Below, one piece after another: positions 574 to 23,232 of a DNA stretch of 24,559 nt (position 1 is the stretch's first letter; each line of letters opens with the position of its first letter). The notes below the pieces were generated by a model. The model made no database searches and had not been told where the DNA came from. It saw nothing but the letters and a program-made list of their open reading frames with translations. The position numbers were made by a program, and so were the translations under genes. Source of the DNA: a virus; the UHGV virus genome UHGV-0135335, one strand, 5' to 3'.

Positions 574-589
574 TGGGACCACGGTCCCA
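574..589. other. Putative SopB-binding centromere-like palindrome, copy 1 (TGGGACCACGGTCCCA)
   Basis: 16-bp inverted repeat read directly from the sequence, lying in the terS/terL junction. It is the reverse complement of copy 2. Confidence 0.7.
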
Positions 590-599
590 TTTTTTATGG

Positions 600-2321
600 A
601 TGAGTTATATGGCCGCATACCCGAACGTCAATCTGGCGAACCAGTATGCGCGTGATGTGCTAAGCGGCAGCATAGTCGCCTGCAAATACATCCGGCTGGC
701 CTGCCAGCGCCATTTTGACGACCTGAAAAAATCACTGGATAAGGATTATCCGTACCGGTTTGACCGGGATTTAGCTGAACGTGCATGTCGATTTGTTCAG
801 CTGCTACCCCACTCCAGTGGGGACCTCAAAGGGCAGAAACTGAAGCTGGAAATGTGGCAAGCCTTCGCTTTCTGTTCAATCTTCGGCTGGGTTACGAAAT
901 CCAACAAAAAACGACGCTTTAAGGAAGCCTACATCCGCGTTGCCCGTAAAAACGGTAAATCGTTTATATCTGCGGGCATTGGTATGTATATGTTCTGCGC
1001 TGATGGCGAAAACAGCGCAGAAGTCTACTGTGGCGCCACGCAGATGAGGCAGGCCAAGAAGGTCTTCACCCCAGCCCAACAAATCGCAAAAATGTTGCCG
1101 GCGTTGCGCCGGCGTTTTGATGTTTCAGTCTGGACGGAAAAGCTGACGCGTCCGGACGGTTCGGTATTTGCACCAGTCGTCGGCGACCCGGGTGATGGTG
1201 ACTCGCCTAGCTGCGCCATTGTTGACGAATACCACGAACACAAGACAGACCGGCTATACCAGGCAATGACGACAGGGATGGGTGCCCGTAGCCAGCCCCT
1301 GGTGCTTATCATTACCACTGCAGGCGTTGACCTCGAATCGCCCTGCTACGACAAGGACAAGGAGGTCAAAGAGGTACTGGACGGCATTACGCCGAACGAG
1401 CGCCTGTTCGGCATGATCTACGAGCTGGATCAGGGGGATGACTGGACCGACCCGGCCCATCTAATTAAGGCAAACCCAAACCTCAACGTGTCTGTGATGT
1501 ACAACGACCTGGTTGAAAAGCTGGAGATCGCCAAAAAAGTTCCCCGCATGACGAACGGGTTTAAGACTAAGCACCTCAACATGTGGGTCTCCGGCGCCAC
1601 GGCGTTCTTCAACATGGAGCAATGGAAAGAGGCTGAGGACAAGACGCTGAAGCTGGCAGACTTTGCTGATGATGATGCCCATCTGGGTCTGGACCTTGCG
1701 AAAAAGCTGGATATGAACGCATGCATCCCGCTGTTTACCCGGGAAATTGAGGGCAAAAAACATTACTACGCCGTCGGCTCTAAATTCTGGGTACCGGAAG
1801 ACACTGTGCACAGTACCGATCCGAAGCATCTGAAAGCTGCAGATCGATACCGGAAATTCGTCAATATGAATGTGCTGGACGCGACGGATGGCGCCGAGGC
1901 CGATTACCGCGAAATTCACGCCAGTATCCTCGATCTCCGGCAGGAAATCAGGATCAAAGAGGCTGATATCGACCCTGCAGGTGCGACGGCGTTACGCCAT
2001 CTGCTGGAAGATGAAGGGGTGGAGTGTGTCGAGATCACCCAGAATTTCCAGAACATGTCCCCTGCGATGAAAGAGCTTGAGGCGGCGCTCGCCGGCGGGC
2101 GATTCCATCACGATGGAAACCCGATTTTGACCTGGTGTATCAGCAACGTCCTAGGAATATTTATTCCTGGCAGCGATGACATAGTGCGCCCAGGCAAAGG
2201 CGACAAACAGAGCAAAATCGACGGCGCGACAGCGTTATTCAATGCCCTGACCCGCGCGCTGCAAAATGGCGGCGGTGGCGGCGGGAAATCTATTTACGAT
2301 GAGGAAGATGTCGCATGTTAA
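600..2321 (+). CDS. Terminase large subunit
   Basis: Long ORF of about 574 aa directly after TerS, with an ATPase N-terminal half and an acidic-residue nuclease-like C-terminal half. Start is ambiguous between TTG 573, ATG 600 and ATG 609; ATG 600 is chosen. The 573-599 stretch contains a SopB-type palindrome. Confidence 0.85.
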   Translation: MSYMAAYPNVNLANQYARDVLSGSIVACKYIRLACQRHFDDLKKSLDKDYPYRFDRDLAERACRFVQLLPHSSGDLKGQKLKLEMWQAFAFCSIFGWVTKSNKKRRFKEAYIRVARKNGKSFISAGIGMYMFCADGENSAEVYCGATQMRQAKKVFTPAQQIAKMLPALRRRFDVSVWTEKLTRPDGSVFAPVVGDPGDGDSPSCAIVDEYHEHKTDRLYQAMTTGMGARSQPLVLIITTAGVDLESPCYDKDKEVKEVLDGITPNERLFGMIYELDQGDDWTDPAHLIKANPNLNVSVMYNDLVEKLEIAKKVPRMTNGFKTKHLNMWVSGATAFFNMEQWKEAEDKTLKLADFADDDAHLGLDLAKKLDMNACIPLFTREIEGKKHYYAVGSKFWVPEDTVHSTDPKHLKAADRYRKFVNMNVLDATDGAEADYREIHASILDLRQEIRIKEADIDPAGATALRHLLEDEGVECVEITQNFQNMSPAMKELEAALAGGRFHHDGNPILTWCISNVLGIFIPGSDDIVRPGKGDKQSKIDGATALFNALTRALQNGGGGGGKSIYDEEDVAC

Positions 2322-2497
2322 ATGTGATTGCAGTCTTAGTTTTTCTGGTCGGGCTGGCTGGCGCGGTGATGGTTTCTGCCGGTGCTTGGCTAATTGCCCC
2401 AGCTGCCGGGCTGATCACTGGTGGCGTCCTCTGCATTTTTTGCTCATGCGTTTGGGCTAAATCGCTGGGTAAAGCGGCTGATAAAGGGGGTAACTAA
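2315..2497 (+). CDS. Small hydrophobic protein, likely two transmembrane helices (hypothetical)
   Basis: 60-aa ORF whose ATG overlaps the terL stop (ATGTTAA) and whose stop overlaps the portal ATG (TAATG), suggesting translational coupling. Product is dominated by L/V/A/G hydrophobic stretches. Confidence 0.4.
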   Translation: MLNVIAVLVFLVGLAGAVMVSAGAWLIAPAAGLITGGVLCIFCSCVWAKSLGKAADKGGN

Positions 2498-3759
2498 TGT
2501 TTATCCCCCAATTTTTCCAGGGTGGCCAGAAAGCCGGTACCAACAGCAGCGACTGGACAATCCTCGGCGGTATGAGGGGTGGAAGCAGCTCATCGGGCAT
2601 AATTATCACACCGGAAACGGCCATGGCCATGTCGGCGGTCCGGGCATGTGTGACGCTTCTGGCTGAGTCGGTGGCGCAGCTGCCGTGCGAACTGTATCGC
2701 CGGGATGAAAAAGGCGGGCGTATTCGGGCGACCGATCACCCACTCTATGACCTAATTCACTCCCAGCCCAACAAGAAAGACACCTCCTTTGAATACTACG
2801 AGCAGCAGCAGGGCGCGCTGGGCATTGAAGGTAACTCGTTTGCGCTGATTGAGCGCAACGGGAAAGGTGAGCCGACGGAATTGATTCCAGTGAACCCGAA
2901 AAAGGTCATTGTGATGAAAGGCCCGGACGCGATGCCTTATTACCATCTTCCCGATCTCGGCGAAACATTGCCGATGCGTATGGTGCATCACGTTAAATAT
3001 TTCTCGTTCGACGGTTATGTCGGCACTTCGCCGATTCAGACGAACGCTGATGTACTCGGCCTCGGCCTGGCTGTTGAGCAGCACGCGGCCCAGGTATTTG
3101 CGCGCGGCACGACAATGAGTGGTGTGATTGAACGCCCAGCAGAAGCCACGGCCATTAAGAGCCAGGAGGCGATTGATAAGCTGCTGGCCAAATGGACGGA
3201 TCGTTATTCCGGCGTCCGTAATGCGTTCTCTGTCGCGCTGCTGCAGGAGGGAATGAGCTATAAGCAGCTTTCCCAGGACAACGAGAAAGCGCAGCTGCTG
3301 GAATCGCGTAAATGGTCGGTGAACGAAATCTGCCGGCTGTATAAAGTCCCGCCGCACATGATTCAGCTGCTGGAGCAGTCCACGAACAACAACATCGAGC
3401 ACCAGGGCCTGCAATACGTGATGTACACGCTGCTGGCCTGGCTGAAGCGACATGAAAGCGCCATGATGCGCGATCTGCTGCTGCCCAGCGAACGCCGGGA
3501 TCTGTATATCGAATTCAATGTTTCCTCGCTGCTGCGAGGGGACCAGAAATCGCGCTATGAATCCTACGCGCTGGGGCGCCAGTGGGGCTGGTTATCGGTT
3601 AACGATATCCGTCGAATGGAGAACCTGCCGCCTATTCCTGGTGGTGAAACATATCTGACACCGCTGAATATGGTGGACAGCGCCAAGTTGCCGGCAAATA
3701 TCAATAAAGCCTCACCGCAGCAAATTAGTGAGATTGAAGCCATTCTGGCACGTACCTGA
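2497..3759 (+). CDS. Portal protein (HK97 family)
   Basis: 420-aa ORF after terminase; sequence character and position are typical of HK97-type portals. SD AAGGGGG at 2484-2490. Confidence 0.85.
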   Translation: MFIPQFFQGGQKAGTNSSDWTILGGMRGGSSSSGIIITPETAMAMSAVRACVTLLAESVAQLPCELYRRDEKGGRIRATDHPLYDLIHSQPNKKDTSFEYYEQQQGALGIEGNSFALIERNGKGEPTELIPVNPKKVIVMKGPDAMPYYHLPDLGETLPMRMVHHVKYFSFDGYVGTSPIQTNADVLGLGLAVEQHAAQVFARGTTMSGVIERPAEATAIKSQEAIDKLLAKWTDRYSGVRNAFSVALLQEGMSYKQLSQDNEKAQLLESRKWSVNEICRLYKVPPHMIQLLEQSTNNNIEHQGLQYVMYTLLAWLKRHESAMMRDLLLPSERRDLYIEFNVSSLLRGDQKSRYESYALGRQWGWLSVNDIRRMENLPPIPGGETYLTPLNMVDSAKLPANINKASPQQISEIEAILART

Positions 3760-3762
3760 AAC

Positions 3763-3790
3763 AAGCCCGCAGCCGTGGGCTTTTCTTTTG
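3763..3790 (+). terminator. Weak hairpin plus T-tract between portal and protease (possible attenuator)
   Basis: AAGCCC-gcagccgt-GGGCTT followed by TTTTCTTTT. Short stem, so low confidence. Confidence 0.3.
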
Positions 3791-3799
3791 GTGGAAACC

Positions 3800-4711
3800 A
3801 TGAAATTAAAAATGATTAACCTTCCGCACCTCGCGGATCAGGTCTTCGGTGTTCCGCACTATGCCACGCGCCAGATCATGGACTCGGTGAAAGCTGTCCT
3901 GGTCCCGCGCCTGCAGGGGAACGGTTCTCCGGATTTGTCTATGGCATTCGAATCTGACGACGTTCCGGAGCCAGAGAAAACGCAGGCCGCAGGCGGCGTT
4001 GCAGTGATTCCCGTTCACGGCATCCTGGTGCCGCGGCGCGGCCAGATTACGGCGGCCTGTACCGAACTGGCCAGCTACGAGCGAATCCGCGGCATGATTA
4101 GCGCCGCGCTGAGCGATACAGCCGTCAGTGAAATTGTGCTGGATATCAACTCCGGCGGTGGTGCAGCAGCCGGATGTAAAGAACTGGCCGATTACATCTT
4201 CCAGTCGCGTGAAGTGAAGCCGATCACCGCAATCGTCAATTTCAGCGCGTACTCAGCAGCGTATTTCATCGCGTCGGCATGCAGCAAAGTCATCGTGAGC
4301 CAGACCAGTGGTGTCGGTTCGATTGGCGTCATCATGGAGCACATGGAGGCGTCAAAGTGGGAAGAGAATATCGGCCTGAAGTTTACGACGATTTTCCGCG
4401 GCGATAACAAGAACAATGGCTCGCAACACGAACCGCTGAGCGAGCAGGCCCAGGCGATGTTTCAGGGCATGATCGATGACATGTACGAGAAGTTCACGTC
4501 CTCGGTCGCTGAATATCGTGGGCTGAACCAGCAAGCGGTTATCGATACGCAGGCCGCATTCTATTTCGGTGCTGATGCAGTTGCCGTCGGTCTGGCCGAT
4601 GAAGTTTCCGATCCGCAATCGGCGATCAACGCGATTGCAGCGAAGTACCGAACCCCACAGCAATCAATCCTGTTACGGGCCTCAGTCATGGACATGCAGA
4701 CCCAACTTTAA
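3800..4711 (+). CDS. Head maturation protease / scaffold (S49 / ClpP-like peptidase family)
   Basis: ATG 3800 (MKLKMINL) with GGTGGA upstream. Product contains VIPVHGIL...LDINSGGG...SAYSAAYFIASAC, typical of S49/SppA-type phage prohead proteases. The track ORF extends upstream to 3728, inside the portal gene. Confidence 0.8.
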   Translation: MKLKMINLPHLADQVFGVPHYATRQIMDSVKAVLVPRLQGNGSPDLSMAFESDDVPEPEKTQAAGGVAVIPVHGILVPRRGQITAACTELASYERIRGMISAALSDTAVSEIVLDINSGGGAAAGCKELADYIFQSREVKPITAIVNFSAYSAAYFIASACSKVIVSQTSGVGSIGVIMEHMEASKWEENIGLKFTTIFRGDNKNNGSQHEPLSEQAQAMFQGMIDDMYEKFTSSVAEYRGLNQQAVIDTQAAFYFGADAVAVGLADEVSDPQSAINAIAAKYRTPQQSILLRASVMDMQTQL

Positions 4712-4736
4712 CCCGACGCCTACGCGTCACCCTGAA

Positions 4737-4760
4737 AGCAGCCATATGGCTGCTTTTTTT
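4737..4760 (+). terminator. Rho-independent terminator-like hairpin between protease and capsid genes
   Basis: Perfect palindrome AGCAGCCAT|ATGGCTGCT followed by TTTTTTT. Confidence 0.55.
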
Positions 4761-4783
4761 ATGTCTAAAAAGAGAGAAAAATT

Positions 4784-6073
4784 ATGCCTCAGATTGAAGA
4801 ATTACGTCGTCAGCGCGCGGGTATTAACGATCAGGTTCAGGCTCTGGCTCAGGTTGAACTGGGCGGCGGCGTATTGTCCGCTGAGCAACTGACTCAGTTT
4901 AACAGCCTGCAGCAGCAGTTCACTGATATCACCGCCCAAATCACCCGCCTGGAAGCGGCAGAACGCGCCGCAGCAGCGGTGGCGGTCCCGGTATCCGCAA
5001 CGGGTACTGGCGCGCCGGAGATTCATGTGAAAGCCGAACCGCCGCAGTACAAGGGCGCGAGCATGACCCGCATGGTTATGGCTATTGCTGCCGGTGGTGG
5101 TGATCTGGGCCTGGCGCAGACCTTTGCCGCTAAGGAACTGAACGATAATCAGGTCGCGATGGCGATCAGCACTGCCGCCGGCTCTGGTGGCGCGCTGGTT
5201 CCGACCAATATGCAGAACGAAGTGATCGAGCTGCTGCGCGACCGTACCATCGTTCGTAAATTGGGTGCGCGTTCCGTGCCGCTGCCGAACGGCAACCTTG
5301 CTCTCCCGCGCCTGGCCGGTGGTTCGACTGCCAGCTATGTCGGTGAAGGGAAGGATGTGAAAGCCAGCGGCGCCAGCTTTGATGATGTGAAACTCAGCGC
5401 GAAAACGCTGATCTGTATGGTTCCGCTGTCGAACCAGCTGATCGGTCGTGCCGGGTTCTCTGTCGAGCAGCTGGTGCTGGGCGATATCATCAGCGGTATT
5501 GCTACCCGCGAAGATAAAGCCTTCCTGCGTGATGATGGTACCGCAGACACCCCGAAAGGGATGAAAGCAGTTGCCACAGCTTCAGCGCGCATTAAAGCCT
5601 GGGATAAAGATGCGGATATCACCCTGCAGACCATCGATACCTATCTGGATGGGCTGATTCTGATGACCATGGACGGCAACAGCAACATGCTGCAGTGCGG
5701 CTGGGGTATGTCCAACCGTACCTACATGAAGCTGTTTGGTCTGCGTGATGGTAACGGGAACAAGGTATACCCGGAAATGGCCAGCGGTATGCTGAAAGGC
5801 TATCCGATTGAGCGTACCAGCGCGATCCCGGCTAACCTCGGCACCGGCGGTAACGAGTCCGAGATTTACTTCGCTGACTTCAGCGATGTGCTGATCGGTG
5901 AAGAAGGTGATATGAAGGTCGATTTCTCCCGTGAAGCGACTTACATCGATGCCGACGGCAACACCGTTTCGGCGTTCGCCCGTAACCAGTCCCTGATCCG
6001 CGTTATCGTTGAGCACGATATTGGTTTCCGTCACGTCGAAGGTCTGGCGCTCGGTACCGGCGTTCTCTGGTAA
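4784..6073 (+). CDS. Major capsid protein (HK97 fold) with N-terminal coiled-coil delta domain
   Basis: 429-aa ORF. N-terminal about 100 aa are coiled-coil-like (QIEELRRQRAGINDQVQAL...), followed by a Gly-rich body typical of HK97-family capsid proteins. A strong terminator follows. Confidence 0.9.
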   Translation: MPQIEELRRQRAGINDQVQALAQVELGGGVLSAEQLTQFNSLQQQFTDITAQITRLEAAERAAAAVAVPVSATGTGAPEIHVKAEPPQYKGASMTRMVMAIAAGGGDLGLAQTFAAKELNDNQVAMAISTAAGSGGALVPTNMQNEVIELLRDRTIVRKLGARSVPLPNGNLALPRLAGGSTASYVGEGKDVKASGASFDDVKLSAKTLICMVPLSNQLIGRAGFSVEQLVLGDIISGIATREDKAFLRDDGTADTPKGMKAVATASARIKAWDKDADITLQTIDTYLDGLILMTMDGNSNMLQCGWGMSNRTYMKLFGLRDGNGNKVYPEMASGMLKGYPIERTSAIPANLGTGGNESEIYFADFSDVLIGEEGDMKVDFSREATYIDADGNTVSAFARNQSLIRVIVEHDIGFRHVEGLALGTGVLW

Positions 6074-6087
6074 TCGACCACAGCCAC

Positions 6088-6116
6088 AAAGGCCCGCTTT
6101 GCGGGCCTTTTTTATT
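6088..6116 (+). terminator. Rho-independent terminator after major capsid gene
   Basis: GGCCCGC-ttt-GCGGGCC stem followed by TTTTTTATT. Confidence 0.8.
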
Positions 6117-6137
6117 CACTTTTGCTGGAGATAGACC

Positions 6138-6485
6138 ATGGCTGGAAAATCTAAAAAAGATGCCGGTGCAGACACCACAACTTCCGTTGATGGTGGTGAT
6201 GCGATTATTGATACCGCCAATATTGTCGACGGTGTGATTTCTGCTGATGCGATCACCGGTGATGAAATTGGGACCGTGGTCCCAGCGGTTAAATCCGCGC
6301 CGGAACGTCGCGCTGTTGTGTTCCTGGGGCCATATCATCGCTATTCGCGCGCTGATGTCGCTGCATTCGATGCTGAATACGCTGAAGAGCTGGTTACGCG
6401 CAAAATTGCAGCCTGGCCAGAAGATGCGAAGCGTGCGTTGAATCCTCGTTGGGGAGACGATGACCATGAAACCGACATTGGATGA
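6138..6485 (+). CDS. Hypothetical acidic protein (Asp/Gly/Ala-rich N-terminus)
   Basis: ATG 6138 with GGAG at 6127-6130. 115 aa. Contains palindrome copy 2 within its coding sequence (EIGTVVPAV). Confidence 0.5.
   Translation: MAGKSKKDAGADTTTSVDGGDAIIDTANIVDGVISADAITGDEIGTVVPAVKSAPERRAVVFLGPYHRYSRADVAAFDAEYAEELVTRKIAAWPEDAKRALNPRWGDDDHETDIG
6269..6284. other. Putative SopB-binding centromere-like palindrome, copy 2 (TGGGACCGTGGTCCCA)
   Basis: 16-bp inverted repeat inside the 6138-6485 ORF. Confidence 0.7.
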
Positions 6486-6789
6486 AGTTAAGGTCCAGCT
6501 TCGCCTCGAGCTGGATTTTACCGAGCATGACGATCTGCTGACGCGCCTGATTGGTGCCGCGCGTCGCAGTATCGAGCGCTCGTATTACTGTCGCCTGGCA
6601 GAATCGCAGGATGAACTGGACAAACTTCCGGATGGTCCACCGGCGTACCTGATTGATGACGATATCCAACTGGCCATGCAGATGATGGTCGCCCACTGGT
6701 ATCTCAACCCGACAGGGGCTGGCGAAGGAACGCCGTCAGAACTTGGCGTCTCTTACCTGCTGTTTCCGCTGATGGAGCATACCGTATGA
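6460..6789 (+). CDS. Head-tail connector protein (gp6-like)
   Basis: 109-aa product with LDEVKVQLRLE...DDLLTRLIGAARRSIE, characteristic of gp6-type head-tail connector proteins. Lies after the capsid gene. Confidence 0.75.
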   Translation: MTMKPTLDEVKVQLRLELDFTEHDDLLTRLIGAARRSIERSYYCRLAESQDELDKLPDGPPAYLIDDDIQLAMQMMVAHWYLNPTGAGEGTPSELGVSYLLFPLMEHTV

Positions 6790-7130
6790 GCCAGAAACCA
6801 CTGCAACCCGGAGAGCTGAATTGCCGGTTGTCGTTCAGCTACATCGTTATCGGCGAAGGACCGCTGGGTGAGCCGCTGCCGGCGCAGGAGGTGCAAGCGG
6901 GGAAAGCCTGGGCGAAGAAAGAGCTGATTTCAGGCCGGAAAATCCGGACGCTGGACCAGCAGCAGGTGGTCGAAACCTGTGAATTTACCCTCTATCCGCG
7001 TGAAGTGGATATCGACTGGAAGGTGGCCACAAAGGACCGGGTTTATACCGTTCGCAATGTTGACCGACTTCCGGACCGCATGATCATTACGGGGGAGGCT
7101 GACGGGCGCCATGATCGAGCTGGCAATTAA
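6786..7130 (+). CDS. Head closure / head-tail adaptor protein
   Basis: ATGA overlap with the connector stop. 114 aa with C-terminal DRVYTVRNVD...MIITGEA, typical of head-tail joining (SPP1 gp16-like) proteins. Confidence 0.7.
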   Translation: MSQKPLQPGELNCRLSFSYIVIGEGPLGEPLPAQEVQAGKAWAKKELISGRKIRTLDQQQVVETCEFTLYPREVDIDWKVATKDRVYTVRNVDRLPDRMIITGEADGRHDRAGN

Positions 7131-7491
7131 ACCTGCGCTGGAGCGCATAACGGGCCTGAAAGCGTACCCGCTGCTGCTGCCTGATAGCGTGCAGGAAGGG
7201 GCAACCTTTCAGCGTATTTCCGACCCGCAGGTCGGTGATGGCCTGGTGCGTACCGGGCTAATTGACGTCCGGATGCAGGTCAATCTTTATCTGATTGATG
7301 ATTACACCCGCGCGTTGCAGCTGGATAGAGCATTGTGGGCCGAGTGGAAAACCCTGGTACATGGAGAGCTTGAGGGCCATCCGGTCCAGTACGTCGAGCG
7401 AGGCGGCATCCAGCAGGATAAAGTCACCCTGACCAGTGGCCGCGTGCAGTACCGCCTTGTCCGCGATTTCACTTTTACCGTTCCGGAGTAA
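7111..7491 (+). CDS. Neck / tail-completion protein (hypothetical, gp9-like position)
   Basis: 126-aa ORF in the expected position between head closure and tail terminator genes. Assignment is by synteny only. Confidence 0.5.
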   Translation: MIELAIKPALERITGLKAYPLLLPDSVQEGATFQRISDPQVGDGLVRTGLIDVRMQVNLYLIDDYTRALQLDRALWAEWKTLVHGELEGHPVQYVERGGIQQDKVTLTSGRVQYRLVRDFTFTVPE

Positions 7492-7496
7492 CTCCC

Positions 7497-7907
7497 ATGG
7501 AGATGGAAATCAAATTCCCGACCGGGAAGGATTTCGATCGGATTCTGGAAGATATCGACAAAAAAGTAGGTGTGAAGTTGCTACGTGATGCCGGACGTGA
7601 GGCGATGAAAATCGTTCAGCTGGACATGATTAGCAACGCCGGTTTCGATGAGGAAAGTACCGGGCCGCACATGCGCGATAGCATCAAAATTCGTAGTACC
7701 AACGTAGCAGAAACCTCCCGCTATAACACGATCGTCACGCTTCGTGTCGGTCCCAGCAAAACCCATCACATGAAAGCCCTGGCTCAAGAGTTTGGCACCG
7801 TTAAGCAGGTTGCCAAACCGTTTATTCGCCCGGCGCTGGATTACAACGTTCAGAAAGTCCTGCAGGTGCTGGCAACTGAAATCCGCATCGGGCTGGAAGG
7901 TCAATAA
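7497..7907 (+). CDS. Tail-component protein, HK97 gp10 family
   Basis: 136 aa containing STGPHMRDSIK, resembling the TG-x-L/M-R-x-SI signature of HK97 gp10-like proteins. Sits immediately upstream of the major tail gene. Confidence 0.6.
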   Translation: MEMEIKFPTGKDFDRILEDIDKKVGVKLLRDAGREAMKIVQLDMISNAGFDEESTGPHMRDSIKIRSTNVAETSRYNTIVTLRVGPSKTHHMKALAQEFGTVKQVAKPFIRPALDYNVQKVLQVLATEIRIGLEGQ

Positions 7908-7920
7908 TCGGAGATAAAAA

Positions 7921-8397
7921 ATGGCAGACGATATCAAATCCCCCTCGGAGTATGCATCCCTTCCGGCGGGTACCCGCGTTTATTACGGCGCCGTTGGCGC
8001 TACGATCGCTACCGCAAAACTGTTGCAGTCGGCAACCGCCATCGGGGCCACCGGCAACAAAGGGACGTTTATCGAAGTTACCCGCCTGATCGACACTGAG
8101 CCGAAGTACATGGCTGATATGGGCGAAGGTGAAGACAAAACGCTGGTCTTTATCGATGACCCGGATGATGTTGCACAGCAGGCGCTGCTGGCTTCTGCTG
8201 ACGCGAAAGAAACGGTTGTCTTTTTCATGCAGTTCCCGAACCGTCGCCTGGCAGAGATTCAGCTCGTTCTGGCCGGCTGGAGCATGCAGACCGTCGATTC
8301 ACCGAAAGGAAAGGTGCTACAGCTGGAGGTTTACGGCAAGCAGAACAAACTGAAATGGACGGTGACCCCCGCCGAACCGGACCAGGGCGGCGCGTAA
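7921..8397 (+). CDS. Major tail (tube) protein
   Basis: 158-aa ORF located between the neck proteins and the G/GT chaperone genes. Assignment is by synteny and size. Confidence 0.6.
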   Translation: MADDIKSPSEYASLPAGTRVYYGAVGATIATAKLLQSATAIGATGNKGTFIEVTRLIDTEPKYMADMGEGEDKTLVFIDDPDDVAQQALLASADAKETVVFFMQFPNRRLAEIQLVLAGWSMQTVDSPKGKVLQLEVYGKQNKLKWTVTPAEPDQGGA

Positions 8398-8448
8398 TCC
8401 TTTGGCCATTGCCAGCCACTTCCTTCATTTATCATCAGGATCATCATC

Positions 8449-8793
8449 ATGAACTACAAATCGCTGACCACCCCGCTGAACACCACCACTGAAAAAACGC
8501 TGCTTGGCCAGAAGGTGTTTATCCGCCGCCTGACTAATACCGAGCTGGATAATTACAACGATACGGTTGATGCAGCACGCAAAGAAGGCCAATCGTCGCG
8601 CCAGCTGTCCATTCTGGGTGCCAGTTTGTTCCTGCAGGCGTTGGTTAACGAAGATGGCTCTCGCCCTGGGAAAAAGGACCTTCCGACGGCGGAAGAACTG
8701 CTCGACGCGCATGCTTCAGCTGATTTGCTGCAGGCGATTACCACCGTCCAGCGCTATTCCTATGGCACGCCAGAGGAAGCGGAAAAAAACTAA
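8449..8793 (+). CDS. Tail assembly chaperone (lambda gpG-like)
   Basis: 114-aa acidic product immediately upstream of the tape measure gene. Ends with slippery A AAA AAC followed by TAA. Confidence 0.7.
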   Translation: MNYKSLTTPLNTTTEKTLLGQKVFIRRLTNTELDNYNDTVDAARKEGQSSRQLSILGASLFLQALVNEDGSRPGKKDLPTAEELLDAHASADLLQAITTVQRYSYGTPEEAEKN

Positions 8794-9032
8794 CCACCTC
8801 GCCCCGGCTCAGACTGCTGTTCATGCTGGCAGACCGCTGGGGCGAGCCTGACCCGCGCAAACTTGGTGACCTGCCGGCGCACATTCTCACCTATTGGGAG
8901 GCATATTTTAACCTCCTGAAGACTGAGACCGCCGGCGAGCCACCGCCATCATCACCGCAGCCTGCTGTTGCACCGTCTGAGGGCGCTCAGCAGTTCGCTG
9001 ATTGTCTGAGGATCTTAGGAAATGGCGGCTGA
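8449..9032 (+). CDS. Tail assembly chaperone frameshift product (gpGT-like); -1 slip at A AAA AAC (8784-8790)
   Basis: The -1 frame is open from the slippery heptamer through to 9032 (KKLTTSPRLRLLFMLADRWG...). Its end overlaps the tape-measure start. This is the conserved arrangement in lambda-like tails. Confidence 0.6.
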
Positions 9033-12000
9033 TGTTGCATCGTTGGCCGTTGCGCTTCACCTGAATTCGGCCAGTTTCAAATCGCAGTTTGCTGATGCGA
9101 TGCGGTCGGCTGATAGTGGGGCGCAACAGTTCAACAGAAAGGCGCAGGCGGATGCCAAAAATACCCGCCAGTCATACGAGGGAGTCAGCAAGGGGATCAC
9201 CGGTCTCGATGCTGACTTTAATAAACTTGGCCGCACGGTTGATAAGCGTCTGACCGGGCTTGATGAGATGCGCGGCCTGCTGGCCAGCATCTCTGCCGGT
9301 AGCAACGTTGCCGGCAGTTCGATAGCAAACGCGCTGGTTACGTCGCTCAGCGAAGGTATGAGCACCGCGCTATCAAACAGCGTGAATGGCCTGAAGAACC
9401 AGCGGCAGGCCCAGATTGAGTTCACCGCGGCGCAGGTTGATGCGGCGCGTGGCGTCATTGAGAACGCCAGGAGCCTTCGCGAAGAGGCCATCGCCAAACA
9501 GAATGCTGCAGTGAAGACGATCGAGGCGGCTAAAGCGGACCGCGAGCGCGCGTTCGCGCTCGATGAGTATTACGCCAAGCAGGCCCAGGTGAACAAGCAG
9601 TACGGCATAACCGTTGATTATCAGGAAGAGCACGTTAAAAACTCCCGCGTGATTAACGAAGCGAACCTGGCGGAAGCCAAGGGCAAAAATAGTCTGGCCG
9701 AAGCGACCAAAGCGGTGCTGGCGGCTGATATTGCCGAATCTGACGGTAAGCTGCAGTTGGCCACATCGACCCGAAATCTGGCAGTTGTGAGCCAGGAACT
9801 ATCGCTCGGCCAACGAGCTGCTGCGGCCAGCGCCGGGTTATTGCGTGGCGCACTGGCGATGGTCGGCGGTCCGGTCGGTCTTGCCGTGATGGCGGTTGCC
9901 GGCGCGGGTACCGCGATTTATACCGCGTTCTCGCGCAGCCAGGCGGAGATCGACGGATTCAACAAGGCGCTGCAGAAGTCCGGGCAGCAGTCCGTGATGA
10001 ACGTGATGTACCTGCAGAACCTGGTTTCCCGCCTGGGCGACACCGCCGGTGCGGTTAAGTCGGTCACTGCCGCCGTCGGCGCCGGGTTCGGCGGCGATAT
10101 TCTGGATCAGGTGGCGGGGCTTGGCACCCGTATGGAAGAAATTGGCCAGAGTTCTGATGACCTGGTTACGCTGCTTTCCAGTCTCAGCGGCGACCCGCTG
10201 AATGCGCTGCAAAAGCTGACCGATCAGGGAATTTTGCTGAACAGCAGCATGGTCGATCAGATTGTTACCCTGAGCCGCCAGGGGAAAACGACTGAGGCTA
10301 CCGCGCTGCTGCAGCAGGCGGCCATGGATGACGTTTCCGAAAAGCTCAAAATTCAGGAAAGCCAGGTGGGTGTGCTGGAAGGCGCATGGAAGTCCCTGAA
10401 AGGGTTTGTGGCTGATGCCTTTAAGACCAGGGGCGATGCGCATATGGCTACCGCCCAGGCAATGGCCGCCGGCGCCAATGTCGATCTGACGCCAACCGAA
10501 GACCCCGCCATCAAACAGCGTGAAGAGGCTGAAAAACTCTACCAGCAGCGGAAGAAAGAGCGCGAAGAGCTGACGAAGCGCCTGAAGGATGAAAACACCC
10601 TCTCCGGCCTGATGAAAGCGGGCGTCTCGCGTGAGAAAGAGCGCGCTGATGCCATTGCGCTGGTCAACGCGAACTATACGAAAGGGACGGCTGAGTACAC
10701 GCAGGCGATGGCTGGCGTGAACAAGATGTACTCCGAGCAGAAGAAAGCCCGTGAGAAAGCGTATTCCGATGATACCGCGACACGCCGTCTGCAGGACTTG
10801 CGGCAGGAAGAAGCGGTGCTGCGCACGCAGAACGACCAGACCGAGCAGCTGACGAACAGCGAGCGCAAGCTGCTGCAGTTCAATCAGGAAGTCGCCGATC
10901 TGAAAGAAAAGCGCATCCTGACCGCTGGCCAGCGCAGTCTGCTGGCGCAGGAAACGGAGCTTCGCAACCAGCTGCAGATCAACGCCAGCCTGGACCGCGC
11001 CAACGCGCAGCGGAAAATAGGCCTGCAGATGCAGGAGAAGAACCAGGAACTGTACCGCTCAACAATCCAGTTGCAGCAGGAGTACAGCAACCGTGTAGCG
11101 CAGATGACGATGAGTTCAACCGCGTATGATCAGATGGTTGCCGAACAGCAGATTCGCGAGCGATTTGCAAAACTGAGGGAAGAGCTTGATAAAACCGTAA
11201 GTGATCACGCTTCTGAACAGTATCGCCAGCAAACGGAAGTGTTACGCAGCGAAGAGCAGAAGCAGTTCGATATTGTTTTGAGCGGAGCTAAGCGAAAAAG
11301 AGAAGTGGAAGGATCTTGGCTCGATGGCATGAAGAAAGGGCTTCAGGATTGGCGTGAAGATGCTGAAAACCAGTTTGCTATGACGCGAGATATTGCAGTT
11401 AATGCTATGGACGGCATGAGCAATAGCATCTGGAATTTTGCCTCTAAAGGGAAGGCTGATTTTAAGTCATTTGCGGTTTCAGTCATCAATGATATCGGAC
11501 AGATGATCACCAAAATGCTGGTCATGAATGCGGTTAAATCAGGCGCATCTGCATTTGGCATAAGTAGCATGTTCGGCTGGGCTGATGGTGGTTATACCGG
11601 TGATGGCGGCAAGCATGACGTTGCTGGCGTGGTCCATAAAGGCGAATGGGTTATTCCTCAGAACGTCGTGCAAAAACCCGGCATGCTGAATTTCCTGAAC
11701 CAGCTGACCTATGGCAGCGGCTATGCAGACGGCGGTTTAGTTGGTGGTAGCGTTGCCCGCCCTTCCAGCAATGAAGATGCCGGCAGTGATAATCGAAACA
11801 TCCGCTTTACGGTCAACATCCCGCTGCAGGTGATTAAGCAGAGCGCCGCGGCAAACCAGCAATCAAAAGACCAGGGAAAAACCAGCGATGAGGCTCTTAG
11901 CCTCGAGGCGTTATCCCAGATAAAACAGGTCTGCTACAGCGTGCTTGACCGTGAGTTATCGAATAACGGCATGATCCTGAATGCAATCAAGGGGGCGTGA
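9022..12000 (+). CDS. Tail tape measure protein (lambda gpH-like)
   Basis: 992-aa ORF that is largely Ala/Gln/Glu-rich and coiled-coil-like, with a Gly-rich C-terminal region. Position is after G/GT. Confidence 0.9.
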   Translation: MAADVASLAVALHLNSASFKSQFADAMRSADSGAQQFNRKAQADAKNTRQSYEGVSKGITGLDADFNKLGRTVDKRLTGLDEMRGLLASISAGSNVAGSSIANALVTSLSEGMSTALSNSVNGLKNQRQAQIEFTAAQVDAARGVIENARSLREEAIAKQNAAVKTIEAAKADRERAFALDEYYAKQAQVNKQYGITVDYQEEHVKNSRVINEANLAEAKGKNSLAEATKAVLAADIAESDGKLQLATSTRNLAVVSQELSLGQRAAAASAGLLRGALAMVGGPVGLAVMAVAGAGTAIYTAFSRSQAEIDGFNKALQKSGQQSVMNVMYLQNLVSRLGDTAGAVKSVTAAVGAGFGGDILDQVAGLGTRMEEIGQSSDDLVTLLSSLSGDPLNALQKLTDQGILLNSSMVDQIVTLSRQGKTTEATALLQQAAMDDVSEKLKIQESQVGVLEGAWKSLKGFVADAFKTRGDAHMATAQAMAAGANVDLTPTEDPAIKQREEAEKLYQQRKKEREELTKRLKDENTLSGLMKAGVSREKERADAIALVNANYTKGTAEYTQAMAGVNKMYSEQKKAREKAYSDDTATRRLQDLRQEEAVLRTQNDQTEQLTNSERKLLQFNQEVADLKEKRILTAGQRSLLAQETELRNQLQINASLDRANAQRKIGLQMQEKNQELYRSTIQLQQEYSNRVAQMTMSSTAYDQMVAEQQIRERFAKLREELDKTVSDHASEQYRQQTEVLRSEEQKQFDIVLSGAKRKREVEGSWLDGMKKGLQDWREDAENQFAMTRDIAVNAMDGMSNSIWNFASKGKADFKSFAVSVINDIGQMITKMLVMNAVKSGASAFGISSMFGWADGGYTGDGGKHDVAGVVHKGEWVIPQNVVQKPGMLNFLNQLTYGSGYADGGLVGGSVARPSSNEDAGSDNRNIRFTVNIPLQVIKQSAAANQQSKDQGKTSDEALSLEALSQIKQVCYSVLDRELSNNGMILNAIKGA

Positions 12001-12002
12001 TA

Positions 12003-12350
12003 ATGGCGCTGGAAACATTTAACTGGTCGCCGAGGAATGGTCCTGTCGGGGACATTCAATTTCGTACCCGGTCAGCGCAATATGGCGATGGTTACGAGCA
12101 GGTGACTGGCGACGGCATAAACTCCGAAACACAGTCATGGCCATTGACGTTTGTCGGGCTGAATGAAGATATCAGGCCCATCCTGAAGTTCGTCAGAGAG
12201 CATGGCGAAACGCGCGCGTTTAAGTGGGTAAACCCACTGGGTGAGCTTGGGTTATATCGCGCCACCCAGATCAAACCCACTGTGATGGATTTTGCTCGTA
12301 TGTCGCTATCTGTTACGTTTGTGACGGCATTTCGCGCCGAATCATCATAG
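12003..12350 (+). CDS. Minor tail protein M (lambda gpM-like)
   Basis: ATG 12003 after GGGGG. Product motif YGDGYEQ and overall length match lambda gpM (FGDGYSQ) as recalled. Confidence 0.8.
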   Translation: MALETFNWSPRNGPVGDIQFRTRSAQYGDGYEQVTGDGINSETQSWPLTFVGLNEDIRPILKFVREHGETRAFKWVNPLGELGLYRATQIKPTVMDFARMSLSVTFVTAFRAESS

Positions 12351-12358
12351 AGGGATAT

Positions 12359-12736
12359 ATGAAAGGACTTTTTTCCGCACTTGTTATGTGTGTTGCATTA
12401 ACTGGTTGTGTCCAACCTATGACAAAAGCTGAAGTTGATCGTGCAGTTTATGAACCGTTGCCTGCAGATTACCAAGAGCAAATAAAGTCAACGATTGAGC
12501 TTAGACTGAAAGATCCTGACTCTGCAAAATATCGGTTTTTCGACCCCAAAAAAGGATATACAGAGGGTACACGGCACTTTGGATTTGTAGTTCCCGTAGG
12601 TGTTAATGCAAAAAATAGCTATGGCGGATATACGGGTTATAAATTGTATTATTTCGTTTATTACAACCAATCATTCAAAGATGTCACCGAAGGCGTAGCA
12701 TGGGATGCAGTCAAATGGTCTGATGACGTCAAATAG
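12359..12736 (+). CDS. Lipoprotein moron (hypothetical secreted lipoprotein)
   Basis: SD GAGGG then ATG 12359. Signal peptide with lipobox LTGC (MKGLFSALVMCVALTGC). Visibly AT-richer than flanking tail genes. Followed by its own terminator. Confidence 0.6.
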   Translation: MKGLFSALVMCVALTGCVQPMTKAEVDRAVYEPLPADYQEQIKSTIELRLKDPDSAKYRFFDPKKGYTEGTRHFGFVVPVGVNAKNSYGGYTGYKLYYFVYYNQSFKDVTEGVAWDAVKWSDDVK

Positions 12737-12762
12737 CCTCATCCCCCCACACCCCCACAAAC

Positions 12763-12784
12763 CCCGCTCTGCGGGGTTTTTTGT
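12763..12784 (+). terminator. Rho-independent terminator after lipoprotein moron
   Basis: CCCCGC-tct-GCGGGG stem followed by TTTTTTG. Confidence 0.8.
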
Positions 12785-12786
12785 TA

Positions 12787-12804
12787 TTGGGACCATGGTC
12801 CCAA
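12787..12804. other. Putative SopB-binding centromere-like palindrome, copy 3 (TTGGGACCATGGTCCCAA, perfect 18-bp palindrome)
   Basis: Intergenic, lying between the moron terminator and the gpL Shine-Dalgarno sequence. Confidence 0.7.
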
Positions 12805-12817
12805 TCAGGAGAAACCC

Positions 12818-14935: not shown

Positions 14936-17900
14936 ATGGAAATTACAGGCGCAAAAGGTGGCGGCGGCAGCGGAAGTAGCGATAAAGGCGAGAACCGCGG
15001 TACCGAGATCGCTTCAGTTGCTTACATGAAGATATTACTGGCGCTGACCGAGGGGGAAGCCGCCGGCGGATTCTCAGGCCAGGATATTTATCTCGATGGT
15101 ACGCCGCTGCTGGATGATTCCGGGAATGCAAACTTCCCAGGCGTTACCTGGGAATGGCGTAGCGGGACTGTCGACCAGCCATATATTTCCGGCTTTCCTG
15201 CTGTAGAAAATGAAGTGGCCGTTTCTACGGAGCTGAAGTACGGGACGCCGTGGGTTAAGTCGATTAACAACACGCAGCTCTCAGCCGTTCGTCTGCGCCT
15301 GAAATTCCCGAATGGCCTGTATGAACTGCGAGACTCAGGTGGGAAGAGTGGTTATACCGTTGAGTTTGCCATTGATATCTCAACTGATGGCAGTTCCTAT
15401 GTCGAATACGGGCGGGATACCGCAAGCGGTATTGCTAATAACGGCTATGAGCGTAGCTATCGAATTGAGCTGCCACCGGCGCAGACTGGCTGGCAAATTC
15501 GCGTAAGACGCCTTACACCAAACGCCAATGATGCCCGGCACGCCGATACATCCCGGATCGAATCGATAACCGATATCGTTGATGCCAAATTGCGGTATCC
15601 CCATACCTCGCTGCTGTTCGTCCAGTTCGATTCTCAGTTGTTCGATGGTCGTACGCCGACAGTAACGATAAAAATGAAGGGGATCATCGTTCGCGTTCCA
15701 TCGAACTATGACCCGATCAACCGGACGTATAGCGGTACGTGGGACGGGACGTTTAAATGGGCATGGACGAACAACCCGGCCTGGATTTTTTACGACATCG
15801 TGACGAATGCCCGGTACGGCCTTGGTCGCCGCATAACGACAAACCTCGTTGATAAATGGACGCTCTACCAGATTGCTCAGTACTGCGATGCGAAGGTTTC
15901 TGACGGCGCAGGAGGCACAGAAGCGCGTCATCTTTGTGACCTGTACATTTCACAGAGAACCGACGCCTGGACGGTCCTGATGGATTTGGCGGCGATTTTC
16001 AGGGGGATGATCAGCTGGTCGAATAATCTGCTTTCGCTTGATGCCGATATGCCGCGCGAGCTGGACCCGGACTTTGTCTTCAACAAGTCCAATATTGTCG
16101 GTTCGTTCAACTTCTCCAGCTCATCCGAGCGTACCAACTATTCTGCGGCGATAGTGACTTACAGCAACCCGAACAACGGCTACAACGATGATCAGGCCAG
16201 CGTTCACGTACCTGAAGTCTCTTCGCGATTTGGTTTCAATACGATGGAAATGACTGCCGTCGGCTGCACGCGCGAGAGTGAGGCGCAGCGCCGCGGGTTG
16301 TGGGGTATCGAGACGAACCGCGATGATAATGCGGTTGAGTTCAAAACAGGCATGGAAGGCCGTATTCCGAGGGTTGGCAAAGTGATCGGCGTGAATAACG
16401 CACCACTGGCCGGACGGGCGAACGGTGGCCGTGTAGCTGCAGCTGCAGGTACAAAAATCACGCTGGACAGAAATACCGTTGCCGTTCCCGGTAATCGCCT
16501 GATCATCAACCTGCCGACGGGAAAGGCCGAAGGACGAACGATTAAGTCAGTATCTGGCCGCGCGGTCACTGTGGAATCTGCATACAGCGTATTACCTAAC
16601 GCTGAGTCGGCGTGGGTAATTGACCAGCAGGATCTGGCCATCCAGTTATTCAGGGTTCGCCGTGTGGCCATCGGGAGTGATGACCTGGTAACAATATCCG
16701 GGTTGCCCTATAACCCGAACAAATTCGCGAAAATTGATGATGGCGCGATTGTCGAAGACCGTCCTGTGACCGTGGTCCCACCTGGTAGCCAGTCTGTACC
16801 AACGAACATTGAAATCACCAGTGAATACCGAATTGTTCAGGGGATAGGTATAAACACCCTGGTCGCGACATGGGACCCGGTGATAAACGCCATCGCCTAC
16901 GAGGTGCAATGGCGCCAGAATAGCGGCGACTGGATTAATGCAGGCAGGACAGGAAATACCCGAATTGAGGTCGACGGTATTTATGCTGGCCGTTATGTCG
17001 TCCGCGTTCGGGCCATCAACGCGATGGATGTTGCCTCGGTATGGGCAGTATCAAAGGAAGTCCAGCTGGATGGAAAAATCGGAAAGCCGCCCGTTCCTGT
17101 CAATTTGAGAACAACCCCGATGCTATGGGGTATTCGTATTGACTGGTCTATTCCCGCAGGAGCTGAGGACTCGCTCTATACGGAGCTGCAGTATGCGCAG
17201 GAACGCGACGGCAATACGGCGCTATTGCTGAGCAATATTCCATATCCGCAGTCCACATATTCACAGATGGGCCTTCGTGCAGGGCAGGAGTTCTGGTATC
17301 GGGCGCGTCTTATCGACAAGATAGGAAACCCATCGGACTGGACTGGATGGGAGCGCGGTATTTCAAACGATAACTCAGGTGATTATCTGGAGGGGATCGG
17401 TGATGGTTTCCTGACCTCAAAAGACGGTGACGCGTTGACGAGTCAGATTGACCAGAATATCGAGGGGATTCTACAAAATGCGCAGGCGAATAATGCCACC
17501 ATCGATCACCAGTGGAAGCAATATGGAGAGGTTCGCGCTGATATCCTGATTGTCAAAACGACAATTGCCGATGTTGATAAAGCGATGGCCGAGCTATCGA
17601 CGACAGTTCAGGCCCAGGTTGATGATATTACGGCCACGCTGGAAGATAAACTGACAGCGGTTGTCGATGCTGATGGCGCCTCAGCAATTCATACGCTGAA
17701 AGTCGGCGTAAGAATTGGCGACCAATATTATGGTGCGGGGATGTCCGTTGCTGTTATTGCGGATGCTGGTCAGCCAGTAATAACCAGAATTGGATTTAAC
17801 GCAAATCAGTTTGTGCTGATGAGTGGTCTGGACGATAAGCAATATTCACCGTTTGCAGTGATTAACGGTCAGGTATTTATCAGTAGCGCATTTATTCAGG

Positions 17901-20490: not shown

Positions 20491-21672
20491 TCAAAGTATG
20501 TAGCGCTTGTTTATTTCATCGGCAATTTTCTTAATCCGCTCATTTTCAGTAGCTTCATCCTTCAGCACGGTTCTGGCGAACGGGATCAGGGCCAAAATTT
20601 CGTTGGCGGGAATATCGTATTCCAAGCCTGTAGCCGCAGCACGGATGTAGTTGGTCACATCATTAATTTCTAAAAATGCCTCATCCACTGCTTCACCAAC
20701 CGATTTTTGCTGCTCGGCCTGGTGAGCTTCCAGCAGTTCCTCAATCTTCTGTACTAACGCTGGCGGTACGTTGCTCAGTTGGAAGGATACAGAATCCCCC
20801 TTGTACTTCGCTTTTATCCCTTTACCAAACAGGCGTTCACGCATTGCAGGTTTTACTGGTTTTTGCGCCACCTGGTGTAGCTGGTCAAGAATGTCATCGG
20901 TTTCGAGCTGTTCACCAGCACGCTTACGCTTGGCCAGATGCTGAGCAAACGCAAACATCGCCTCTTCATTCTCGGCATAGGCTTTTGCCAGTGCCTCACC
21001 AGCTCGGGCGCTCAGTTCGTTAGGGTTACGGAACAGGCTAATAATTTCGCGTGGTAGCTCTGCCGTCTTCATGCAGCGGACGATAATTTTTCGGGAGATA
21101 TTCTCAGCTTCGGCCAGCTTGCTGACTGTACCGCCGAACTCATTGGCCAGACGGCGAGCATAGCGCTTTCCGCGCTCGTAAGAGCTGGTCTGCCGGTAGT
21201 CGTTCCCGATCTGTGATAGCCAGGCCATTTGTTCGTCGTCCAGCTCGCCGACGAGAACGCGGTATTCAGAGCTGGTGTAAATGGCTGTCTGGCGGCGGCG
21301 GCTACCGTCGGCCACTTCAATAATGCCAGAGATTTTACGGCCAAATGCTGGGTTCTGTTGCCCGGACGCGAGGAATGACGGGATCAGATCATCCAGCGCA
21401 TCTTTTGTCAGCAGTGCCTGGTCTCGTTCATTTCCGCCCCAGACCATGGTCGCCTTTTCCACCATGTTCGCATCGACGGTTTCCAGTTTGAACGACACAT
21501 CCCGCCCACAGACCGGAAGCGTGATATGGTTCCCGGTCATCCCGCGGACGCGTTCACTGAGGTTAGCCACCGCCGGCGCAGCTGGTTTATGCGCGTCATC
21601 ATGGCGTGGGACCGCGGTCACAGTGTCCAGATTGATTTGTGGTGCGTTTTTCATTACTGGTGCGCGTTTCAT
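20491..21672 (-). CDS. sopB: Partition protein SopB (ParB family)
   Basis: From MKRAPV the product aligns closely with F-plasmid SopB as recalled (LPVCGRDV, GNERDQ, DALDDLIPSF, ADGSRRR, YRVLVGELDDEQM, AENISRKII). ATG overlaps the sopA stop (ATGA). About 70 aa longer at the C-terminus than F SopB. Confidence 0.85.
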   Translation of the reverse strand: MKRAPVMKNAPQINLDTVTAVPRHDDAHKPAAPAVANLSERVRGMTGNHITLPVCGRDVSFKLETVDANMVEKATMVWGGNERDQALLTKDALDDLIPSFLASGQQNPAFGRKISGIIEVADGSRRRQTAIYTSSEYRVLVGELDDEQMAWLSQIGNDYRQTSSYERGKRYARRLANEFGGTVSKLAEAENISRKIIVRCMKTAELPREIISLFRNPNELSARAGEALAKAYAENEEAMFAFAQHLAKRKRAGEQLETDDILDQLHQVAQKPVKPAMRERLFGKGIKAKYKGDSVSFQLSNVPPALVQKIEELLEAHQAEQQKSVGEAVDEAFLEINDVTNYIRAAATGLEYDIPANEILALIPFARTVLKDEATENERIKKIADEINKRYIL

Positions 21673-22896: not shown

Positions 22897-22951
22897 CAAC
22901 ACAATTTATGCAAAATCCCTTAAAAAAAGATTTTCACAATGACAATCACAA

Positions 22952-22990
22952 CCGTACATCATACGGACAAAACATCCGTACAATGTACGG
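22952..22990. promoter_or_regulatory. Paired palindromes CCGTACAtcaTACGG and CCGTACA-A-TGTACGG (putative operator)
   Basis: Two inverted repeats sharing the CCGTACA half-site, 9 bp apart, in the sopA-TA intergenic region. Followed by the direct repeat TTGATTGA (22994-23001 and 23007-23014). Confidence 0.4.
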
Positions 22991-23232
22991 CTTTGATTGA
23001 CAAAAATTGATTGATGTGTGACCATATGAAGGTTGCAACGAGCTTCAAACATGTATTTAGTCAGTAAGCAATCTATTCATTCATTAGTTAAAGTATTGAT
23101 TTATTAAGAAAACAATAGAGGAATATTAAATGATCAGAGGAACAATCAATCGCGGGGCGGGCAGATACCGATGAACAAGATAAGGAGGCAACCCACTTAA
23201 AAACCAATGTTTGATTTTTGGAGATTTTGATT

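Follow-up and report, generated by a model that had tools for sequence, protein, structure and literature searches.

The virus genome UHGV-0135335 is represented by one metagenome contig (ENA ERZ1744281 NODE_343; 24,559 bp, 4.6x coverage), the whole of which is called the window here, and we describe a 16-bp palindrome that recurs along it and its relation to the SopA and SopB proteins encoded on the same contig. The window encodes terS, terL, portal, protease, HK97-type capsid, lambda-like tail proteins (tape measure, M, L, K, I, J) and tail fibres. Next come two minus-strand genes, sopB (20491-21672), which encodes a ParB-family centromere-binding protein of 393 amino acids (aa), and sopA (21669-22838), which encodes a 389-aa partition ATPase and whose stop codon overlaps the sopB start (ATGA); a TacA/GNAT toxin-antitoxin pair follows, and the contig ends 1.7 kb beyond sopA. 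The gene order terS-terL-portal-protease-capsid, tail, sopB-sopA is syntenic with that of N15, phiKO2 and PY54. No match above about 75% identity was found by megablast of the whole window in phage or plasmid collections; the nearest sequenced relatives are phiKO2-like Klebsiella/Enterobacter phage-plasmids for the head genes (about 74% nucleotide identity) and PY54 spyAB for sopAB (71%). Since its nearest relatives are phiKO2-like phages and PY54, the element is, as judged from its sequence, an uncultured telomere phage-plasmid of the N15/phiKO2/PY54 group. Genes for protelomerase and RepA are not on the contig; the closest relative contig, IMG/VR 3300011784_3, encodes both TelN and RepA.

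A search of the window for TGGGACCNNGGTCCCA (TGGGACC-NN-GGTCCCA; 16 bp, of which 14 bases are specified) returned three exact copies, at 574-589 (site 1), 6269-6284 (site 2) and 12788-12803 (site 3), separated by 5695 bp and 6519 bp. These are the three exact palindromes reported in the initial annotation, except that the interval given there for the third, 12787-12804, does hold the palindrome but corresponds to the 18-bp form of a 20-bp perfect palindrome (ATTGGGACCATGGTCCCAAT, 12786-12805) of which the 16-mer is the core. The accompanying claim that three copies cannot be chance is borne out, as none of 100 dinucleotide-preserving shuffles of the window had any match to the exact pattern and about 1e-4 copies are expected in 24.5 kb from the 14 specified bases. 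The central dinucleotides of sites 1, 2 and 3 are AC, GT and AT, and the flanks are unrelated between copies beyond 2-3 bases, so that no larger repeat unit is present. All three contexts described earlier (the terS/terL junction, the inside of a coding sequence, and a position abutting the gpL Shine-Dalgarno sequence) are also as stated. Site 1 (TGGGACCACGGTCCCA) falls in the 36-nt gap (573-608) between the terS stop codon (570-572) and the terL ATG (609), with TTTTTT directly 3' of it; site 2 (TGGGACCGTGGTCCCA) lies in an open reading frame (ORF; 6138-6485) for a head-module protein to which PHROGs gives no function, where it reads I-G-T-V-V-P in frame within an unalignable low-complexity N-terminal part; and site 3 (TGGGACCATGGTCCCA) is placed between an intrinsic terminator hairpin (AAACCCCGCTCTGCGGGGTTT plus a T-run; 12759-12779, plus strand), which is immediately upstream, and the Shine-Dalgarno sequence and ATG (12818) of gpL. 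Two of the three sites are thus in intergenic gaps and one is in a disordered stretch of a head protein, all of them places under little sequence constraint.

When up to three mismatches were allowed, only two extra sites appeared in the window, both differing from the pattern by one base, at position 3 of one arm: site 4 (TGTGACCGTGGTCCCA, 16765-16780), inside gpJ and with the purine-pyrimidine centre GT, and site 5 (TGGGACCGCGGTCACA, 21607-21622), 65 nt into the 5' end of sopB. With the variants counted, the window sites are 4-6.5 kb apart. Position 3 is reported to be unimportant for F SopB binding and to be the most frequent position of natural sopC variation (PMC3177203), and sites 4 and 5 are therefore probably weaker additional sites, as far as sequence can tell. 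The even spacing of the five window sites (coefficient of variation (CV) 0.18, p about 0.01) was set aside as a post hoc and unproven feature that fails in other elements: it is not seen in PY54 (CV 0.97), KpLi5 or PhiR46_1, and is borderline in the closest relative (CV 0.55, p 0.06).

The initial annotation had taken the 16-mer for the inverted-repeat core bound by SopB in F sopC, and the identity is complete. TGGGACCACGGTCCCA is the F sopC SopB-binding site that was used as the probe in electrophoretic mobility shift assays (PMC3597684), and the mini-F record contains eight copies at 43-bp distances between neighbours, of which seven have AC and one has AT (TGGGACCATGGTCCCA) at the centre. 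Natural mini-F sopC repeats thus include exact counterparts of two window sites, the consensus repeat matching site 1 and the A-T variant matching site 3. The arrangement is different, because in F 12 repeats of 43 bp are arrayed in tandem directly after sopB, whereas the window has single dispersed sites; downstream of the window sopB only 36 nt separate it from the next ORF, with no tandem 43-bp array and no site following the gene. The sop genes were said to lie about 8 kb downstream of the third copy, and sopBA is indeed 7.7 kb downstream of site 3, with both products above the NCBIfam equivalog cut-offs (SopB: NF010252, 449 bits against a cut-off of 274; SopA: NF010259, 754 bits against 725). 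Moreover, SopB matches PF18090 (E 3.5e-27) and aligns to the F SopB-DNA structure 3MKY (E 1e-38), and SopA matches Pfam AAA_31 and CbiA. The ParB N-terminal box, ADGSRRR in the window SopB (GSRRR), is invariant in the SopB alignment.

The window SopB is about 54% identical to F SopB, and the residues that read the site are conserved. In the F structure, bases are contacted by S189, R190, K191, I192, R195 and R219 and the two central bases are uncontacted (PMC2910045); all six of these residues are kept in the window SopB, which reads 'ENISRKIIVRC...LSARAG' where F reads 'ENISRKIITRC...LSARSG' and therefore has an F-type recognition helix. Exchange of the recognition-helix segment between F and N15 SopB is reported to swap their specificity (PMC2910045). 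F SopB also requires a purine-pyrimidine central dinucleotide, as found by surface plasmon resonance imaging (PMC3177203), and such a centre is present in 81 of 84 sites from 14 elements, homologous sites included, and in all five sites of the window.

Coliphage N15 had been cited in the initial annotation as the example of scattered centromere sites, and this is correct: according to PMC7205306 and PMC5016525, N15 carries four dispersed inverted repeat (IR) sites, known since 1999, that are documented SopB targets. N15 IR1-IR4 and the four 'putative plasmid partitioning sites' annotated in phiKO2 are single repeats kilobases apart with 7-2-7 geometry, as in the window, and both are linear phage-plasmids with sopAB next to the tail genes. 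However, the sites of N15 and phiKO2 are TGCGACCnnGGTCGCA (TGCGACC-NN-GGTCGCA), with C and not G at position 3 of each arm (the IR sequence is given in Table 4 of PMC7205306, and we located the same sites in the N15 genome), and their SopB has a DRN recognition helix where that of the window has SRK. No TGCGACC site is present in the window, and F SopB is reported to be non-functional with N15 sites (PMC7205306). The proposed comparison of the 16-mer with known sites thus yields an identical type in F and PY54 and one base different per arm in N15 and phiKO2. In addition, N15, phiKO2, PhiR46_1 and pJBIWA007_2 have all of their 3-5 sites in the repA/Q/late-promoter/lysis arm and none in head or tail genes; in KpLi5 one additional site directly follows the capsid gene. 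The suggestion of an N15-like phage-plasmid is accordingly right as to the synteny of head, tail and sop genes with N15, phiKO2 and PY54, and does not extend to the sites, which are of the F/PY54 type and lie in head and tail genes that are free of sites in N15. In the N15 record (L001), a 'putative rho-independent terminator' stem-loop at 45560-45584 is a SopB site (TGCGACCACGGTCGCA).

Yersinia phage PY54 (AJ564013) rather than N15 is the real precedent for the locations of the window sites. It contains the same 16-bp site, with eight perfect GGG copies (G at position 3 of the arm) and three position-3 variants on both genome arms. Three of these correspond to window sites 1, 2 and 5: the site at 508 in the terS/terL junction, the site at 6566 in the post-capsid ORF and a variant at 22251, 65 nt into spyB. 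PY54 SpyB has the same recognition helix as the window SopB and shares with it a C-terminal extension of roughly 60 aa; the two proteins are about 61% identical, at about 66-71% nucleotide identity. PY54 differs from the window in its tail module and in lacking a site upstream of gpL. In the literature searched, the PY54 palindromes were neither annotated nor discussed as centromeres.

Across about 20 elements, we found that an SRK helix accompanies GGG sites and a DRN helix accompanies GCG sites. GGG sites occur with an 'E-N-I-S-R-K' helix in F, the window and PY54, and GCG sites occur with an 'E-G-I/V-D-R-N' helix in N15, phiKO2, KpLi5, PhiR46_1 and pJBIWA007_2. The SopB proteins of the uncultured relatives have the -I-S-R-K- core, and the sites are GGG wherever SopB and perfect sites share a contig or genome (L059; L005/L007 with L014/L019). 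This covariation is the strongest computational evidence that the window SopB reads the palindromes.

The positions of the sites are conserved as well. At site 1 the 14 specified bases are kept in all seven distinct aligned relatives of the GGG lineage and the centre varies (AC, GT, GC), which fits the F structure with its uncontacted central bases; in GCG-type lineages this site is decayed. In the region of site 2, 'GTxVP' (the palindrome in frame) is the sole conserved island in GGG-type lineages and is absent from GCG-type ones, which argues for a constraint on the DNA and not on the protein. At site 3 the upstream terminator and the exact palindrome are conserved together in 7/8 distinct aligned F-type relatives, the eighth (L033) differing at the last base, and the sequence just downstream of the site diverges among relatives. 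The two variants are less widely kept, site 4 being common to the window and its closest relative only, and site 5 recurring as a one-arm variant at the same offset in PY54 and L010 and not in L006, L007 and L009. The closest relative, IMG/VR 3300011784_3, could be reconstructed as a fully tiled contig of 38.6 kb with nine perfect sites and one variant, and it keeps all three exact window sites. Its structural arm has the gpJ variant (the counterpart of site 4) and sites upstream of gpL, in the post-capsid ORF and at the terS/terL junction; the six sites in the arm that lies outside the window are four between the lysis region and Q and two more within the 5' part of repA, 256 bp from each other. 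By extrapolation from this relative, the half of the replicon that lies outside the window probably has another five or six sites, and about 9-11 are predicted for the whole replicon, among them a repA pair with a similar spacing of about 256 bp.

We also scanned IMG/VR viral contigs for the exact pattern and recorded N15/PY54-like markers (RepA, TelN, SopAB, Q, cI or head module). Among the matches listed, all 15 contigs with at least three sites had such markers, and among the single-site contigs a marker was present in 6 and absent in 51 of 57, the latter being the expected chance background. One contig, IMG/VR 2832090241_1 (L113-L116; 47.9 kb), carries 15 or more perfect GGG sites, several forming doublets 37-38 bp apart, and a SopB 54% identical to that of the window; it is a much denser variant of the same dispersed arrangement. 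In Salmonella-type relatives (L005-L008, L011 and L156 at 643 and 10901; SopB 76-83% identical), a one-arm variant (TGGGACCnnGGTCTCA) is present about 100 nt downstream of sopB, which is the position of sopC in F and one at which the window has no site.

Taken together, these data suggest, with a probability we put at roughly 90%, that the palindromes are binding sites of the element's own SopB and form the centromere of a type Ia (SopABC/ParABS) partition system. Single 16-bp sites every 2-6 kb along the replicon would then replace the tandem sopC array of F. By analogy with F SopB biochemistry, from which we infer the steps of the mechanism, a SopB dimer would read each arm through its helix-turn-helix and R219, bound SopB would nucleate a larger SopB assembly on neighbouring DNA, and SopA-ATP on the nucleoid would position and separate the SopB-loaded copies, so that each daughter inherits the low-copy linear prophage. 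The initial annotation had added that SopB binding might affect late-gene expression; the adjacency near the late genes is real (terminator, Shine-Dalgarno sequence, start codon), and because the sites adjoin terminators and start sites such an effect is plausible, only by analogy.

Several points weigh against this interpretation. We infer SopB binding, the partition function and any effect on transcription from what is directly observed, namely the sites, the cognate proteins, their conservation and the covariation of helix and site. The protelomerase, RepA and the other arm are outside the window, so that the total number of sites is an extrapolation. Most relatives do not keep sites 4 and 5, and the site counts (81/84 centres and the 15 multi-site contigs) include sites related by descent, which hence are not independent events. 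Finally, a second or prior role for the terS/terL hairpin is possible, given its terminator-like look and the fact that a hairpin is kept in some GCG-type relatives: site 1 with its TTTTTT tail is flagged by a terminator consensus scan, and Klebsiella-type relatives have GGGAC-TTTA-GTCCC with a T-run at the terS/terL junction, without the inner bases that SopB needs.

The same two observations are what one would expect if the palindromes were RNA or DNA hairpins, that is, intrinsic terminators, attenuators or mRNA-stability elements of the late operon, and not centromere sites; all three sites can fold as 6-8-bp RNA hairpins, and the N15 record itself labels one IR site a putative terminator. 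A role as a hairpin would, however, permit compensatory changes; what is seen is variation at the two uncontacted central bases alone, with the 14 specified ones invariant. Sites 2 and 3 are without a T-run, site 3 directly follows a strong and genuine terminator, the fold energies of sites 1 and 2 are ordinary (z = -0.8 and -1.4), and KpLi5 and phiKO2 have no hairpin at the terS/terL junction. Since the purine-pyrimidine rule of the centre and the helix/site covariation are unexplained at the RNA level too, we consider a hairpin function in place of SopB binding very improbable.

Still less probable is that the palindromes are operators of another phage protein (CI/CB repressor, Cro, protelomerase or terminase) whose likeness to sopC is a coincidence. 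Two-fold symmetry over 16 bp is typical of dimeric helix-turn-helix repressors and site 1 is near cos and terS, but experiments on F define exactly this 16-mer as the SopB site, the site type follows the SopB helix type across lineages, and the annotated N15 CB operators and telRL are located elsewhere. The Cro/CI version of this idea was rejected because PY54 Cro is reported to bind exclusively one OR3 site between cI and cro (PMC4488713). As for the idea that the matches are due to chance, or were left by a small repeat of mobile or restriction-modification-related origin, isolated single copies do occur in many unrelated viral contigs (the 51 of 57 without a marker among the matches listed). 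Against this stand the shuffled windows and the expected number given above, the flanks that differ between copies, and the fact that the multi-copy contigs listed are exclusively phage-plasmid relatives; shuffles, positional conservation and the contrast between multi-site and single-site contigs effectively refute this explanation, to which we give practically no credence.

Dispersed SopB sites of F type on phages are already known, as Pillet et al. (2011, PMC3177203) recorded F-consensus sites that were dispersed and not tandem on three bacteriophage genomes, without naming or analysing those sites, which were set aside; none of the tandem sopC-related centromeres that they recovered was on a chromosome. 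The window is a further and uncultured case, and the current understanding is not overturned. What is added here is the position of sites in structural genes and their conservation, the family-wide covariation of helix and site, and the relic sites described below, although some of these details may already be in print. The family comprises two specificity classes, which follow a difference of three residues in the recognition helix of SopB, and the palindromes, which would otherwise be labelled terminators, as one is in the N15 record, can serve as a sequence-level marker for the centromeres of uncultured telomere phage-plasmids. Moreover, the question raised for N15, why linear replicons scatter their centromere sites, could be approached through the natural variation in this lineage. 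The SopB site of F-type phage-plasmids is also that of the very common F-family plasmids, and mutual interference in inheritance is therefore possible.

In GCG-reading lineages, decayed GGG palindromes were observed at the terS/terL junction (TGGGGCGATGGTCCCA, TGGGACTTTAGTCCC, TGTGACTGCGGCTAAA), at about 15520-15545 in L004, about 3940-3960 in L015 and about 500-520 in L002, and also in L023 and L028; in L004 a decayed palindrome is present upstream of gpL as well. From their sequence, these look like relics of a specificity switch. The resemblance of the junction sequences in GCG relatives to a decaying GGG site hints that the F-type specificity may be ancestral. A tentative scenario, more doubtful than the assignment of the sites to SopB and one that we consider possible rather than probable, is that the centromere of the PY54-like lineage is spread along the whole linear prophage, including the virion-gene arm that is bare in N15 and phiKO2, with sites roughly 2-6 kb apart, as an adaptation for moving long linear DNA (ParB is reported to slide only about 2 kb from a site), and that the N15/phiKO2 lineage would have arisen by a switch of SopB (SRK to DRN, GGG to GCG), which would have left F-type relics at the terS/terL and gpL junctions and allowed escape from partition cross-talk with F-family plasmids. 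If this is true, the phage of the window should show partition incompatibility with F-like plasmids.

Other features of the window and its relatives were noted. The terminator preceding site 3 belongs to a moron-like ORF (125 aa, phrog_2320, function unassigned), which is inserted with this strong terminator of its own between gpM and gpL (12359-12779), so that site 3 comes directly after it; in pJBIWA007_2 a hypothetical-protein gene is found at the same gpM-gpL place, matched by position alone. An imperfect palindrome at 22940-23002 (28-nt arms, 82% complementary) precedes sopA by 100-160 nt; it has no relation to the SopB 16-mer and, from its position, is a candidate sop operator or promoter element. 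Scanning species-representative genomes for SopB peptides and for the exact terminator-plus-site-3 module gave no match, and judged by its sequence the host can be called 'Enterobacterales-like' at most. Large inverted duplications centred beyond sopA or repA are present in L156 (pSe13, CP067338), L006, L010 and IMG/VR 3300012078_4, and these records look like assemblies through a hairpin telomere that were reported as 'circular' or double-length contigs. Between sopA and the contig end (23218-24091, plus strand), a TacA1-like antitoxin gene (106-111 aa) and a GNAT acetyltransferase toxin-like gene (184 aa) were recognised by Pfam matches, with none in NCBIfam, and the pair is probably a prophage addiction module. 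At the opposite end, bases of about 50 to 100 of the window (GGTCGATTTTTACGCGTGGGAAATAAGATCTTTTTTTTGG) show homology to the left cos ends of PY54 and phiKO2, which indicates that the contig begins about 49 nt before the virion end.

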